From Eledone cirrhosa (taxonomy: Eukaryota): 64,000 bases of DNA. Numbering within the stretch: position 1 is the stretch's first letter; each line of letters starts with the position of its first letter. The position numbers were made by a program, and so were the translations under genes. The notes beneath the pieces were generated by a model, which had not been told where the DNA came from, did not search any database, and saw only the letters and a program-made list of their open reading frames with translations. Location of the stretch: NCBI GenBank assembly GCA_964016885.1, contig OZ024741.1, forward strand, positions 221,402,001 through 221,466,000, given 5' to 3'. Positions 7,355 to 27,575 of this stretch are shown here, piece by piece.

Positions 7355-7410
7355 ACTGCTATATATATTTCGATGATAGCCATTGAATGGCTATGACCTC
7401 ATCAGGCAGT
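7355..7410 (-). ncRNA. Type-I hammerhead ribozyme motif (minimal stem III), probable Penelope-like terminal repeat remnant
   Basis: Minus: actgc-CTGATGA-ggtcatagccattcaatggctatcatc-GAAA-tatat-ATA-gcagt, followed by aataaa; stems I and II pair. Confidence 0.85.
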
Positions 7411-13983: not shown

Positions 13984-16671
13984 CTAAAGGATACAATTTA
14001 CACTACCAGAACTTTTAGGTTTATAATAAAAGTAAGAATTAGAAATGGCGTGGGGGCAGGAAGAGAATATCTCAAACTTTCTATTAAGTAAGAGTTCCCT
14101 AGAGAAAATTATAGAGTGGGTCTCAAGAATACAGAGATTACAGAATTTAGTGTGTGTTGGTAGGTTATTAGAGCGTGCTACTATTCGCCAATTAAGGCTA
14201 TATGGTATATTATCTCCCTTAAGATCCCAGATATGGTGTGCTAAAGAAGTAGAATTCTTAAACTTAACATGTTTAAAATTAGAGATATGAGAATTAAACC
14301 TAGTCTTAAAAGTGTTAGATGTTGAGCCTATATATGTGCTATTAGAGGAATTAGTTTTAACTACACAAGCATAAACGATGTTCCTAGAGAGGCAGTTAAC
14401 GTTTAAAGGGCAGTTAACACTTACTCTACAGTTACACTTCCGGGTGCTATTGATCGGCTGAAGTAGTGATGCATCACTCGTAGGGTTACTATGAGATAAG
14501 GTCTGCTCAGGTGGTAAGGCATTTATGGATCTATCCAGACTAGTAGTACGCAGAGAGGAGTAGCCGTCCCTAATTTTCCTATTGTTAGTGCTAGCTAAAT
14601 GAGAACTAATATTAGGGGTGGTAGAGAATGATAATTTAATTACATTTTTATTAAAAATACCATGGTATTTATTAGTAGGAGGGAAATTTTTCTCTAAGAT
14701 AGAAAAGAAAGACCTGGGGATGTTAGTTAATACTTCCTGATCATATGGCGGGTTAAAATAAGTATTTAGTCTCCTTCTATTTCTATCCTTACCAACTCTA
14801 CCGTTATCTAATATCCCATTATTAAGATCTGGGTTACTACGAGGACTAGTTAAAACCACATTATTAGAATCAGCCGAAACCCCATTGAGTCTCTTTCTGT
14901 TTCTACTTCTAGTATATCTACTGCTATCTGGAATTATATCAAAAGGATTGGGGCTAATAATAGGATCAGTAGAAACAACACTATCAGAATTAGATTTAGC
15001 AAAAGCATTACCACTGAGTGAGCGCTCAGAGCGCCCAACTTGATCCCTAGAACTAATAGATTCCCTATTACGAATCCGGTGGCTTAACTAATGGATGGGT
15101 TCGGATACACCTATGTGATTTCTACGATTCTTATGCTTTCTACTCCCATTCATGGCCATATTATGGGATATTATGTTATTATTATTATATGTAAGCGGAG
15201 ACTTTCTAAGGTTACTATTATTATAATGTATTTTACCAGAGTAACCGGAGTTAGCTAGGGCATTATTATAGTACTCTGTATGTGCATTAAATATTCCTAT
15301 GTCCTTAGAGAGTGTGGAAATTTTATTAGATACACCATTAATTATAGAGCTTATCATAGATTTGGGGTGGTTAGAATTGGGACTAACATAAGAGAGTATT
15401 TCATTAGGCTTATGGAAGGGTTTAAAACTATTAGTGACCAAGTCCAAAGTCACATCTAAAAAGTTGACCGCTCTATCATTTCTATCTATCGTGATCGAAA
15501 GGTTAAAGCTTTTAAAAAACTTATAAAGTTTCTTCTTATTATGCTCGATGTTATTGGTGCTAGAGTTAATCACAAACAATGCATCGTCACGATAGAGTCC
15601 GCCTTTAAGGTGCGGAAAGGTAACATACAGTTTATTTAGGAGGAACAGCCCAACAAGATCAGTTACCTGGGCCGAATCACTCGAAACCATTGTAACGTCG
15701 AAATTGTTGGGCGTGTTTTTACGGGTCCAAAATGTATCCTCGAAATTGATGATAGTTCTACGGGCTGCTAGTATAATATCAATCTGTGATCGTGTAAGGC
15801 TGGACACTCTCATGGCCATCATTAAGGCTTTATTAAGGAGGATAGGTGAAATCGATGTGTAATAGGCATCAATATCAAACTGGATAAACCTACTAGATTC
15901 AAGTTTATTAATACCAGAGAACCAATCTATAACCTCCTTAGTGTTCCCCCATAGATTAAATTTAACCTTCTCCCTAACGGCTGGTATAATAAGGTCAAGG
16001 ATTTTCTTACTAATTATGGCTATATCAGACTTAGAAGGACAGATGAGTCTAACAGAGGGATTACTAATGAAGTCTACCTTATGATCCTTAAGAGTGAATC
16101 TCGGTTCCCTAGGGTAATATGGCTGGGTATACTTATCAAGGCCAAGGTCCGAGACTATCTTAAGACCCTCATTATTGATATGATCCAAATTATCTTGCGT
16201 AGTCTTTTTATAATTTCTATGCAGCTCCTTATAAATAAAATTACGGTAAGCACTGTAATCCGTAGAGTATAGATTCTTAGTCTTATCAGCCGGGACAAGA
16301 ATAGACTTATTCGCTCTAAAATCCTTAACAATATTTTTAAGTCTAGACTGGAACCTGTCAAACTTATTATAATTTCCATGTCTATTATATGGCCTATACT
16401 TAATATTTTTGACAAGGGAAAGTAAATCATTTTCAAAATTATCTAATAGAACATTATGTGGTGGGCTCTTATAAGTTTTGAAGCCAAAGTTATTGAAAGG
16501 AGTTCTATGCCAGGGGTCAGTCCTATTCCTATTAATATCAAAGTGGAAAGCACGCCATCTAATCCTTTTTACGAAGGAGTTAACACTAGCAATTAAGAGT
16601 TTTTCATAAGTATTTCTAGAGGGGATGGGAATATTCTTCAGAGATAAAGGCAGGTAGTGCTTCTTATAGCT
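13984..16671 (-). pseudogene. Penelope-like polyprotein (~890 codons): N-terminal domain, reverse transcriptase, Cys-rich linker, C-terminal GIY-YIG endonuclease; one in-frame TAG at 15088-15090 and no start ATG
   Basis: Manual translation is open from 16671: SLKNIPIP, FVKRIRWRA, FGFKT, FENDL, PADKTKNLY, FDIDAYYTSI, FDVTM, GLYRDD, NFLDVTLDL, SNHP, YFNPPY, CNCRVSVNCPLNVNC, IVY..YIG, FKTRFNSH, CNLCILE; ORFs 15088-16188 and 13984-14859 share a frame. Confidence 0.92.
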
Positions 16672-16723: not shown

Positions 16724-17187
16724 ACTTTTGATGTATTGAAGGCTTCTTTGGTTTATTTTCATAATTCTTCGGCTCTGTTTAATTACATTGAGCTATACCT
16801 TTACTGTCATTTCTATAATATGAAGAGGGTGTTTAATTCCAACACACTCTAGTATTTTAATTCTTATATATATATATATATATATATAATCTACCATAAT
16901 ATATAAACATATATATAATCTACCATAATATATATATATATATATATATGAATGAGTAAGGGTCCGACTCATGTTATGGTCCATCTGGTTCCTTACCACA
17001 TTTTCTTCATTATATATATATATATATCTATATATATATGAGATCTGTCAGCTTATCTCCCTTTGTTTGCTGAAAAAAGAAGAAAGTGACATAGTCACTA
17101 CTTTAAAACAATAGCGTAAGGCCTTCAAAATGCTTTTAATTAAGCATACAGTGTATTGCAAAATACACTATATATACACATTCATAT

Positions 17188-17817
17188 ATCATCATCATCA
17201 TCATCGTTTAACGTCTATCTTCCACGCTAGCATAGGTTTAGACAGGAATTGTCCCATTGAGGCAAGATTGGTTGTCTTGCTCGTATAGGACTGTCTGGCA
17301 GGTTTTCTACAGCTGGATGCCCTTCCTAACACCAACCACGTTTACAGTGTGAACTGGGAGGTTTTTACCGTGTTACCTACACGGCCACATTACAGCGTGG
17401 ACTGTGTGTGTGTGTTGTTTTTTTTGTCGTGACACCTACACGACCTCATTTATTTAGGACTGGATGTTGTGGTACCAACATAACTTTACAGTGAAAGGGG
17501 TGGTGTAGATGGGGGTGGGGGTAGGGGTAGTGGGACGGGGGTGTATTTTGGTTAAGAGGTGCCTACTGACTGTAGGTTTAGCTTTGTACTTAGGCAAGGC
17601 GGGTCTTCTGTATTACTGCGTAGCGCCAAAGATCTCGGTCCAGTGACATTGTCTTGGAGAGGTGTAAGTGTGTCAGGTCGGAATTTATGAAATCGTCCCA
17701 GGTTTTTCTGGGTCTGCCTACTCCGTAGCTACCGTCTATTTTGATCGCCCTGCACTTTTTTATACAGCTGTCATCTTTCATGTGCATCACGTGACCATAC
17801 CAACGTAGTCTTCTCTC
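17188..17817 (-). mobile_element. RTE-clade LINE 3' fragment, same subfamily as 9529-10918
   Basis: ERRLRWYGHV..GRPRKTWDD..DRDLWRYAV; 3' UTR closely matches 9530-9925. Confidence 0.9.
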
Positions 17818-18252
17818 GATATATATATACAGATACTCATCTCTCGGAGTTACGAACAACTTCACCAATTACATATATTAGTTTAACAACAATCTCTCGA
17901 AATTACGATTCGTTGACTCGTCCATAATATATTCGCTCAACGACAATATCTCGCAGTTACGATCCGCAGAGAACAGTGACAACACAGTTGTGAGTGAACG
18001 CAAGCAGGAAAAAGCGGACGCTTGCAAGCAGGAAAAAGCGGACGCAAAATGATGATGATGATGATATAAAAGAAATAAGATTTCGCTTCAAGCATAGCTT
18101 TATACAATATGTATAGAAATTTCGTATTTCTAAAGAAATACGGTTTTAGGAAGCTTCATATGCAAATGAGATTAATCACCTCATTTACACAGACGGGAAA
18201 ACTATATATTCTCGGCTGTTTTCAAGTCCAGCAGTTGCAAGCGGTAGGAAGG

Positions 18253-18296
18253 ACCGTCCTGACGAAGGCCAGTTAAGCCTGAAATGCATAGACGGT
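18253..18296 (+). ncRNA. Type-I hammerhead ribozyme motif within an extended hairpin (18226-18319)
   Basis: accgtc-CTGACGA-aggc cagttaa gcct-GAAA-tgc-ATA-gacggt; perfect 6-bp stem I and 4-bp stem II; palindromic ATGCAT. Confidence 0.88.
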
Positions 18297-18344
18297 TGTC
18301 CCCCCTGCTTCTACTGGACACCAGCAGAGGGCGTTAGCGCCCCC

Positions 18345-18540
18345 CTGTAAGGTGGTTGTTTCGGTGCAACAATAAAAAGCACCCAGGTCATACTGTAACC
18401 TGATTGGCGTTAGGAAGGGCATTCAGCCATAGAAACTACCCCAAAATATAAATCCATATGAGCAAGACATGATCTATGGACCTGACTTGTCTTAATGTAA
18501 CAATCCATTAAACCCATGCAAATGTGGAAAATGGACTTTT
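18345..18540 (+). mobile_element. RTE-type 3' tail segment
   Basis: aaaaagcacccag...ttggcgttaggaagggcattcagccatagaaac...aacccatgcaaatgtggaaaatggac resembles the other RTE tails here. Confidence 0.7.
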
Positions 18541-24610: not shown

Positions 24611-26270
24611 AGTGTGGACTGGGTGCTTTTTGTTGTGACACCCACATGACCACTTCACCATGTTGGCTGGATGCTTTATGTTGTGACACCAACATGATCA
24701 CTTTACAGTGTTGGCTGGATGCTTTTTGTTGTGACACCAACATGACCACTTTATAGTGTGGACTGAGTGATTTTTGTAATGACCCCTACACGACCACTTT
24801 ACAGTGTGGACTGGGTGCTTTTTGTCATGACTCCTACACGACCACTTTACAGTGTGGACTGGGTGCTTTTTGTCATGACTCCTACATGACCACTTTACCG
24901 TGAGGACTGGATGCTTTTTGTCATGACTCCTACACGACCACTTTACAGTGTGAACTGGGTGCTTTTTGTCATGACTCCTACACGACCACTTTACCGTGAG
25001 GACTGGATGCTTTTTGTCATGACTCCTACACGACCACTTTACAGTGTGAACTGGGTGCTTTTTGTCATGACTCCTACACGACCACTTTACCGTGAGGACT
25101 GGATGCTTTTTGTCATGACTCCTACACGACCACTTTACAGTGTGGACTGGGTGTTTTTTGTCATGACTCACTCCTACACGACCACTTTACCGTGAGGACT
25201 GGATGCTTTTTGTCATGACTCCTACATGACCACTTTACAGTGTGGACTGGGTGCTTTTTGTCATGACTCCTACACGACCACTTTACAGTGTGAACTGGGT
25301 GCTTTTTGTCATGACTCCTACACGACCACTTTACCGTGAGGACTGGATGCTTTTTGTCATGACTCCTACATGACCACTTTACAGTGTGGACTGGGTGCTT
25401 TTTGTCATGACTCCTACATGACCACTTTACAGTGTGGACTGGGTGCTTTTTGTCATGACTCCTACATGACCACTTTACAGTGTGGACTGGGTGCTTTTTG
25501 TCATGACTCCTACATGACCACTTTACAGTGTGGACTGGGTGCTTTTTGTCATGACTCCTACATGACCACTTTATAGTGTGGACTGGGTGCTTTTTGTCAT
25601 GACTCCTACATGACCACTTTATAGTGTGGACTGGGTGCTTTTTGTCATGACTCCTACATGACCACTTTATAGTGTGGACTGGGTGCTTTTTGTCATGACT
25701 CCTACATGACCACTTTACGTGAGGACTGGATGCTTTTTGTCATGACTCCTACACGACCACTTTACAGTGTGGACTGGGTGCTTTTTGTCATGACTCCTAC
25801 ATGACCACTTTATAGTGTGGACTGGGTGCTTTTTGTCATGATTCCTACATGACCACTTTACAGTGTGGACTGGGTGCTTTTTGTCATGACTCCTACATGA
25901 TCACTTTACAGTGTGGACTGGGTGCTTTTTGTCATGACTCCTACATGACCACTTTATAGTGTGGACTGGGTGCTTTTTGTCATGATTCCTACATGACCAC
26001 TTTACAGTGTGGACTGGGTGCTTTTTGTCATGACTCCTACATGACCACTTTATAGTGTGGACTGGGTGCTTTTTGTCATGACTCCTACATGACCACTTTA
26101 CAGTGTGGACTGGGTGCTTTTTGTCATGACTCCTATACGACCACTTTACCGTGAGGACTGGATGCTTTTTGTCATGACTCCTACACGACCACTTTACAGT
26201 GAGGACTGGGTGCTTTTTGTCATGACTCCTACATGACCACTTTACAGTGTGGGCTGGATGCTTTTTTGTT
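24605..26270. repeat. 48-bp minisatellite (gactcctacaYgaccactttacagtgtggactgggtgctttttgtcat), roughly 34 copies
   Basis: 48-bp period (24781 to 24829); accounts for the SHDKKHPVHTVKWSCR ORFs. Confidence 0.95.
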
Positions 26271-26320
26271 ATGATATATATATATTTGTGACTGAGAGTA
26301 CTCAATACTGAAGTAGAGTT

Positions 26321-27074: not shown

Positions 27075-27575
27075 GTCCTGTAAAGTTGTTGTGTTGGTGA
27101 CAAAAAATGCACCCAGTTCAACCTGTAAGGGTGTTGTGTTGGTAAGATGAGAAAATGCACCCAGTCCACCCTGTAAGGGGATCATGTTAGTGACACAGCA
27201 AAAAGCACTTAGTCTACCCTGTAAGGGGGTCATGATAGTGACATGATAAAAAAGCACCCAGTCCATCATATAATATGGTGGTGCTGGTGACATGACAAAC
27301 AGCACCCAGTACACCCGGTAAAGTGGTCATGTTTGTTGACAACTAAAAGGTTCACATACCACCCTGTTAGATGGTCATGTTGCTGCCCTGATAAAAAGCA
27401 CCTCATCCACACTGTAAGGTGGTTGGTATTAAGAAGGTCATTCAGTTGTAGAAACCTAACCAAATTACAGATCCATATGAGCAAGGTATGGTCACCTGAC
27501 CTGGCCTATCTCACAACAAGACAGCTGATCTAACCCAGGAAAATGTGGAAAAATAGACATTAAATGGTGATGATC
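27075..27575 (+). mobile_element. RTE-type 3' tail with about 7 degenerate ~48-50-bp repeats
   Basis: aaaagcacccagtccac..ctgtaag units are the reverse complement of the 48-mer; ends gtggaaaaatagacattaaatggtgatgat. Confidence 0.7.

Follow-up and report, generated by a model that had tools for sequence, protein, structure and literature searches.

In the 64,000-nucleotide stretch of the Eledone cirrhosa genome analysed here (the window, to which all coordinates refer), a GC-rich hammerhead ribozyme with upstream motifs like those of small nuclear RNA (snRNA) gene promoters lies directly before a sequence that resembles the 3' end of an RTE-type retroelement (18155-18540). The locus raises the question of whether the module and the tail form one self-cleaving unit mobilised by RTE machinery, as the original prediction proposed. 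Our results point to a different answer, to which we give roughly two chances in three. The stretch represents one truncated copy of a hammerhead repeat that is ~320 bp long, abundant and without protein-coding sequence; it likely carries an snRNA-type promoter inside the repeating unit and was likely copied by Penelope-type machinery, and the tail is a separate sequence. All of the motifs named in the original prediction are in place.

The repeat family and its hammerhead

The species' own genome (3.0 Gb) was searched with 18150-18345 as the query, and 40 of 2959 candidates were scored. At the 39 other scored places, the best match was 92-96% identical over nearly the whole query. The flanks of these copies define a unit of ~320 bp (317-334 bp) that runs past a C-run for about 110 bases more and ends in a run of four to six T (T4-T6). 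In the window, the forward arm of this unit, which we call family A, occupies 18152-18345 on the plus strand; it stops at the C-run, without the ~110 bases that come next in other copies. Genome-wide, a 26-base 3' anchor had 838 exact matches, and a pattern of octamer, TATA and hammerhead core had 1369 matches versus 0 for the reversed control. Judged from these matches, the stretch in the window is one arm of a non-coding repeat of ~320 bp with over a thousand copies.

An inverted arm, absent from the original prediction, precedes the forward arm (18063-18154, minus strand). It is 5'-truncated and corresponds to the 3' part of the same unit, matching the 3' part of other copies at 91-93% on the opposite strand. 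The two arms form a head-to-head pair, and the 3' end of the inverted arm faces outward, at a TA site that adjoins an RTE-type tail ending in (ATG)n.

Each unit holds a single type I hammerhead with a short palindromic stem III, a form associated with dimers. In the window copy it occupies 18253-18296 on the plus strand: stem I has 6 bp (18253-18258/18291-18296), the core lies at 18259-18265, stem II has 4 bp (18266-18269/18277-18280), GAAA follows at 18281-18284, and stem III is a 2-bp palindrome. The predicted cut falls after A18290, between 18290 and 18291. Stem I is prolonged by a long hairpin of 94 nt (18226-18319, plus strand), closed by GTCCAG at 18226 pairing with CTGGAC at 18314-18319. 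This hairpin folds at -35.1 kcal/mol (z -3.06), and none of 200 shuffles was as good; the fold of a longer stretch of 136 nt gave z -1.82. An Rfam scan of the window returned no match at gathering score, the hammerhead falling below every Rfam gathering score. The hammerhead was aligned for 12 copies drawn from four related families; 89.4% of its cells are paired and 6 of its 12 pairs change on both sides. This covariation score was reached by 0 of 500 shuffles, and slid registers paired at most 41%; one pair of stem II is unpaired in 8 of the 12 rows. Since the aligned copies are related, we take the covariation as support and not as a probability. The long hairpin and clean hammerhead of the original prediction are thus borne out by the shuffle fold test and by covariation across sister families. 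Two further type I hammerhead cores lie in the window, at 7405 (minus strand) and 26403 (plus strand); both are AT-rich with AATAAA after each, and their sequence is unrelated to family A.

The unit is not confined to one family. By eye, 23 copies outside family A were chosen among the first 100 pattern matches listed, and they fell into four further families in which the stems differ and the palindromic stem III is retained. The pattern by which they were found itself demands octamer, TATA and core, so that the octamer common to all five families is imposed by the search outside family A. Six near-identical copies of family B (L148 and its neighbours, G000:C1:143.34-143.79 Mb) stand mostly ~59 kb apart and probably reflect a large segmental tandem duplication. 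Across the loci studied, no common flanking sequence or open reading frame (ORF) was linked to the unit, in a comparison that did not include an explicit search for a primer-binding site or polypurine tract. With one type I hammerhead per short, non-coding, head-to-tail unit, the structural features by which retrozymes lacking long terminal repeats (LTRs) are recognised are present, and family A is very probably a non-autonomous non-LTR retrozyme.

Insertion anatomy

The anatomy of the copies was examined at 66 loci on contig C1, collected through the 26-base 3' anchor (26 of 30 returned, after four overlaps were dropped, and 40 fetched from the first 100 listed). Of the 113 arms longer than 40 bases, 98 terminate in three TA-like clusters, while the 5' ends are scattered round the whole unit. 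Inverted head-to-head arms were present at 40 of the 66 loci, and 30 loci were longer than one unit, the longest reaching 876 bases or 2.7 units. TA-like flanks accompanied 82 of 99 3' ends versus a background of 15%, in a test window that reached into the element by 4 terminal bases. Insertions of Penelope-like elements are characterised by partial tandems, 5'-truncated inverted arms and (TA)n targets (passages of PMC8557442), and those of the retrozyme therefore have Penelope-type anatomy. We consider it highly likely that the retrozyme is mobilised in the Penelope manner, by an enzyme of that type which we presume from the observed anatomy.

The same arms bear on the template. The cut site is crossed by 88 of the 113 arms, 6 of them crossing it two or three times, and therefore the template was either a ligated circle or an uncut multimer, between which the anatomy does not distinguish. 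The junction between the T-run and the next promoter is crossed by 53 of the 113. Folded as a circle, the natural 333-nt unit from cut to cut reached -100.4 kcal/mol versus -74.9 +/- 5.1 kcal/mol for 60 shuffles (z -5.0).

Promoter layout and the choice of polymerase

Promoters of the host snRNA genes provided the standard for the upstream motifs. The box ATG(C/G)(A/T)AAT(G/T)AG stands at -76 to -78, with TATA at -30, at three independent U6 places, at the best U6atac locus and at the one RNase MRP gene, and the distance from box to TATA is 46-48 in all five of these RNA polymerase III (Pol III) upstream regions that bear the box. At the 15 U6 loci the octamer box was in place in 7, displaced by an insertion in 6 and missing from its place in 2. 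It was also missing at -77 in 7 of 8 U6atac loci, which were taken as pseudogenes by assumption, and it was not present in the RNase P gene. In the U1, U2 and U5 genes, of the RNA polymerase II (Pol II) class, all 25 distinct upstream regions have AATTA at -88 to -91, 23 have TCAGY at -55 to -58 and 18 have a TATA word near -30; the octamer word occurs in none of the 25.

Two side observations concern these host genes. In 6 of 11 fetched repeats of a U6 array (L039, L040 and L042-L045; G000:C19:31.79-31.83 Mb), the TATA box is the insertion site of a ~190-bp repeat, which shifts the octamer from -78 to -270, and the U6 copies with this insertion may be silenced. The RNase P RNA gene (L171) has a TCAGT core of the U1/U2 type, placed 32 bases before the TATA word rather than ~27; this 5-base shift parallels the difference in spacing between U6 and the retrozyme.

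In the window copy, the octamer-type box ATGCAAATGAG lies at 18160-18170 on the plus strand, its octamer ATGCAAAT taking up 18160-18167, and the same word stands at -76 to -78 of the host U6, U6atac and RNase MRP genes. A TCACC core follows at 18176-18180 (plus strand), where host U1, U2 and U5 have their TCAGT core (-57); sister families read TCAGC or TCAGT there. The TATA box (18203-18210, plus strand, with TATATA at 18203) begins 43 bases after the start of the octamer and 27 after the core. From the geometry of the host genes, transcription is predicted to start at an A 30 bases after the start of the TATA box (18233, plus strand).

This layout is retained beyond family A. The spacing from octamer to TATA, 43 in family A, is 40-44 in all 23 non-A copies, where the pattern allowed 39-51. 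A matrix built from 13 U1, U2 and U5 sites, with the TATA of the elements set at -30, had its highest score at -55 to -59 in 16 of 26 copies of the elements and placed that position among its top three in 23 of 26, versus 0 of 6 Pol III genes. The distance from core to TATA in the elements equals that of host U1, U2 and U5, and all 13 aligned copies, from five families with a mean column identity of 51%, have A at the predicted start. When the spacer was shuffled, p was 0.001 and 0.0005 for two representatives (families B and C). The snRNA-type layout named in the original prediction thus agrees with the host snRNA genes and is kept in diverged families, with a weak core match in family A. As far as sequence comparison can tell, the promoter of the retrozyme probably works.

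The alternative that survives best is the same retrozyme with a U6-type Pol III promoter made of octamer and TATA, which would give an RNA of ~215 nt ending at the T-run, with occasional read-through as the template. Among the host genes compared, only U6, U6atac and MRP have the octamer word, the element has an octamer box upstream of a TATA as the host Pol III class does, and the T4-T6 run at the end of the unit suits such a transcript. However, the octamer-to-TATA spacing of 40-44 does not match the 46-48 of the host Pol III genes, and the core at -57 resembles that of Pol II genes. An RNA that ended at the T-run would also exclude the promoter, yet nearly half of the arms cross the junction. 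Since Pol III would be expected to terminate at the T-run, these crossings favour Pol II read-through. We consider the Pol III version unlikely; given a promoter, the spacing and core lean somewhat towards Pol II.

A less probable alternative is an ordinary retrozyme without a working promoter, in which octamer, core and TATA are inherited or structural and the RNA arises by read-through from the host. The octamer and the putative proximal sequence element of family A do fold into an RNA hairpin, the weak core score favours this explanation, and metazoan retrozymes are said to seem promoter-less in passages of a review (PMC7761336). On the other hand, the spacing, the core letters at -57 and the A at +1 match the geometry of host snRNA genes and persist across families whose mean column identity is 51%, and the search pattern did not fix any of the three. 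We regard a promoter-less retrozyme as quite improbable.

From the observed sequence, structural covariation, copy anatomy and promoter-like layout we infer a cycle of transcription by a given polymerase, cleavage, circle formation and enzymatic copying. In tandem copies, Pol II would start 30 bases past the TATA, at the A equivalent to 18233, and the transcript would pass the T-run into the next unit and include its promoter. Two hammerheads are predicted to pair through the palindromic stem III and to cut after AUA, which would free a unit of ~320 nt. By analogy with known retrozymes (passages of PMC7229834), a host ligase could close this unit into a structured circle. A Penelope-type reverse transcriptase and endonuclease would then nick a (TA)n tract, and priming at one of three TA-like stretches inside the RNA would allow 0.1 to 2.7 turns to be copied, often with an inverted arm added. 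Since the unit contains the promoter, every full turn would restore it ahead of the hammerhead; an ordinary snRNA promoter, lying upstream, could not be restored in this way. The window copy is likely dead as a source since it has only one hammerhead and has lost its 3' part. A broader formulation, which we put forward tentatively and with some doubt, is that of a retrozyme superfamily that captured a hybrid snRNA promoter (a Pol III octamer on Pol II core-TATA geometry) in a circular RNA unit, with rolling Penelope-type reverse transcription restoring the promoter at each turn and one family spreading CTCF-like sites.

Several observations weigh against the proposal of a Penelope-copied retrozyme with an internal snRNA-type promoter. 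Core scores of the elements (-16.5 to 11 bits) are weaker than the leave-one-out scores of host genes (8.3 to 21.2), spacer shuffles gave p of 0.056-0.10 for four of six representatives, and the core of the window copy is weak as well (-2.6 bits, rank 2 of 104, spacer shuffle p 0.10). The octamer of the elements stands 4-5 bases closer to the TATA than in U6, U6atac and MRP, and the AATTA found at -88 to -91 in host U1, U2 and U5 has no match in the elements, which have the octamer at -70 to -74 instead; by its motifs and distances, the layout is a hybrid equal to neither host snRNA class. The five families share ancestry, and the non-A copies among them were selected by pattern. Only 3 of the 66 loci have two intact hammerheads in tandem. 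No excess of copy 5' ends occurs at the predicted start (2 of 113 versus 3.8 expected) or at the cut site (1 of 113 versus 3.8 expected), and the 5' ends therefore lend the start site no support. Finally, no ORF-bearing parent was found with a query that covered one Penelope-like clade.

Candidate coding parents, the tail and relation to known elements

At one locus (L031), the unit lies directly before a degenerate ORF. The ORF belongs to a family with 150 listed matches at 91% identity or more, many of them with open frames of 713 codons, and it shows the motifs DKT, CxCX5C, CxxC, CxH and a C-terminal YIG. A Pfam search of the ORF gave no real match. Naiad was considered as its identity and dropped, as DKT, CxCX5C and a C-terminal endonuclease fit the Hydra clade, of which they are features according to passages of PMC8557442. 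This Hydra-clade family (L097, L075, L031) is very abundant, and its terminal repeat has a hammerhead-like core that reads CAGAAGA instead of CTGANGA. The window itself holds a degenerate Penelope-like ORF (14017-16665, minus strand) whose protein is 37-45% identical to the Hydra-type ORF of L097.

The arrangement at L031 would suit an origin of the unit as pseudo-LTR of some ordinary coding family of Penelope-like elements, with most copies being solo ends, and the palindromic dimer form of the hammerhead is common in Penelope-like elements (passages of PMC4209133). However, intact copies of the ORF family bear a different terminal repeat in which nothing resembles the unit (best E 0.24), and on this ground the unit was dropped as pseudo-LTR of the adjoining ORF. 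The Hydra-type ORF is adjacent to the unit at only 1 of 95 loci, so that a reverse transcriptase and GIY-YIG ORF between pseudo-LTRs, the mark of an autonomous Penelope-like element, was not found for the unit in this one-clade query. Moreover, the 5' ends have no common boundary, and the start of the unit is preceded by the unit's own end. We therefore hold a pseudo-LTR origin to be very unlikely; placement in the terminal repeat of an ordinary Penelope family, which the original prediction had named as fatal to its model, was not encountered in the one clade queried. The end of the Hydra-type family does occur at 12 of the 95 loci, which shared (TA)n targeting would explain, and this family is a plausible mobiliser of the retrozyme.

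The tail has a separate history. It is an older fragment of an RTE-type 3' untranslated region (UTR) at 18342-18539 on the plus strand, 69% like the 3' UTR that follows the end of an ORF on the minus strand (17180-17810), whose peptide is recognisably RTE-type. A genome search with 18300-18540 returned the window itself and 40 other matches, all of which start at the tail only (query position 41 or later) at 78-84% identity; none of the 40 includes the module, which is likewise absent from all 14 tail relatives that were fetched. Conversely, among 67 distinct core matches in the fetched loci, 66 run into the family's own 3' part and none into the tail. The module is ~95% like its family, whereas the tail is at most 84% like its relatives and is without the (ATG)n end that they have. 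At the join, the relatives read CCCTGTAAG or close to it, which overlaps the C-run of the module. Contigs of three runs from one sample were checked for presence of the join; in 2 of the 3 runs a listed contig spans it with 0 differences, at a depth like that of the unique flank. The join is private to the window copy and likely arose by deletion of the 3' part of the module together with the front of the older RTE fragment. The tail is almost certainly incidental to the element.

The SINE-like unit of hammerhead and tail moved by RTE that the original prediction envisaged, although suggested by the adjacency of the two in the window and by the RTE-type nature of the tail, thus has next to no chance of being right, since 0 of 67 copies, 0 of 40 tail relatives, the gap in identity, the missing (ATG)n and the C-run overlap at the join all speak against it. 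A hammerhead-bearing unit of a non-autonomous, retrozyme-like kind stands from that proposal, and so does the RTE-type character of the tail. Mobilisation by RTE, the membership of the tail in the unit and the co-occurrence of hammerhead and tail in many copies do not: the survey found the hammerhead without the tail, which the prediction had itself set as refuting, and the insertions are of Penelope type. An RTE-derived 3' tail common to the copies of a family, as expected of an RTE-dependent short interspersed element (SINE), is likewise lacking in these 67 and 40 sequences.

Two further features lie downstream of the hairpin. The word CCAGCAGAGGGCG (18321-18333, plus strand) is an exact match to the CTCF consensus, and a search that allowed one mismatch gave 2 matches versus 0.37 expected. 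The word is exact in 17 of 87 family copies; most copies have one mismatch, the commonest form accounting for 41 of 87, and it does not occur in families B, C and D. For the gggcg-ttag-cgccc hairpin a G at 18339 is required, which 0 of 29 other copies have. Both were pointed out in the original prediction and both are present in the window, but with so few exact copies of the word, and a G private to the window copy, we give no weight to the reading as a CTCF site or to the hairpin as a family feature.

Elsewhere in the window, two arrays of 48-bp tandem repeats (24611-26274 and 27077-27423) derive from a repeat inside the RTE-type 3' UTR that also opens the tail at 18342, and a 22-bp satellite of ~1364 copies occupies the second half (33041-64000).

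Among known elements, SINEs with tails derived from long interspersed elements (LINEs) are also short, non-coding and of high copy number, but the present family has no LINE tail and no tRNA head was seen in it, and internal TA-like sites mark its 3' ends. Newt satellite 2 (Coats, Zhang and Epstein, 1994) is reportedly a hammerhead repeat of ~330 bp with a weak stem III and an internal Pol II promoter of the snRNA type. In these three respects it is like the present element as proposed here, the likeness being one of description. Unlike it, the present element belongs to an invertebrate lineage, mixes a Pol III octamer with Pol II core-TATA spacing, has a TATA box, comprises at least five diverged families and has insertions whose anatomy is clearly of Penelope type. 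Newt satellite 2 is cited as a case of a Pol II snRNA promoter in passages of PMC2220036. The pseudo-LTRs of Hydra-clade Penelope-like elements share the palindromic dimer-type hammerhead, partial tandems, an inverted 5'-truncated arm and (TA)n targets (passages of PMC8557442 and PMC4209133), whereas our unit has no ORF and is dissimilar to the terminal repeat of the abundant Hydra-type family of this genome.

Metazoan non-LTR retrozymes, in the available text of PMC7229834, PMC7761336 and a 2026 preprint (bioRxiv 10.64898/2026.07.22.740005), have a non-coding unit of ~300 bp, one type I hammerhead per unit, tandem organisation, a GC content of ~45%, a structured predicted circle and Penelope-like elements as proposed mobilisers. 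The present copies are alike in these respects and differ in being mostly dispersed insertions of 1-1.5 units with inverted arms rather than long arrays. By the features compared here, the element is a non-LTR retrozyme, and its new aspect is the snRNA-type promoter layout, where it departs from the promoter-less state noted in passages of the 2020 review (PMC7761336). The word 'promoter' does not occur in the available text of the 2026 preprint by Li, Clavereau and Pollet (bioRxiv 10.64898/2026.07.22.740005), nor do hammerhead, ribozyme or snRNA in the available main text of a 2026 octopus repeat annotation (PMC13282606). No description of this element or of a cephalopod retrozyme promoter was found in the literature covered, which did not extend to supplements, Repbase or Dfam, and the element may be catalogued under another label.

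On the transcription of metazoan retrozymes, the promoter-less view in passages of the 2020 review (PMC7761336) stands on one side and newt satellite 2, as the one precedent for an snRNA promoter, on the other. The system described here offers a precise predicted start site, three promoter motifs that can be mutated and five natural families. The host U6-type and U1/U2-type promoter elements were defined as a by-product, and the 4-5 base difference in spacing may set the choice of polymerase. The insertion-end data tie retrozymes to Penelope-type integration on the basis of anatomy. If the proposed cycle is correct, a circular or tandem RNA unit allows a retroelement to carry an upstream-type promoter along with it.
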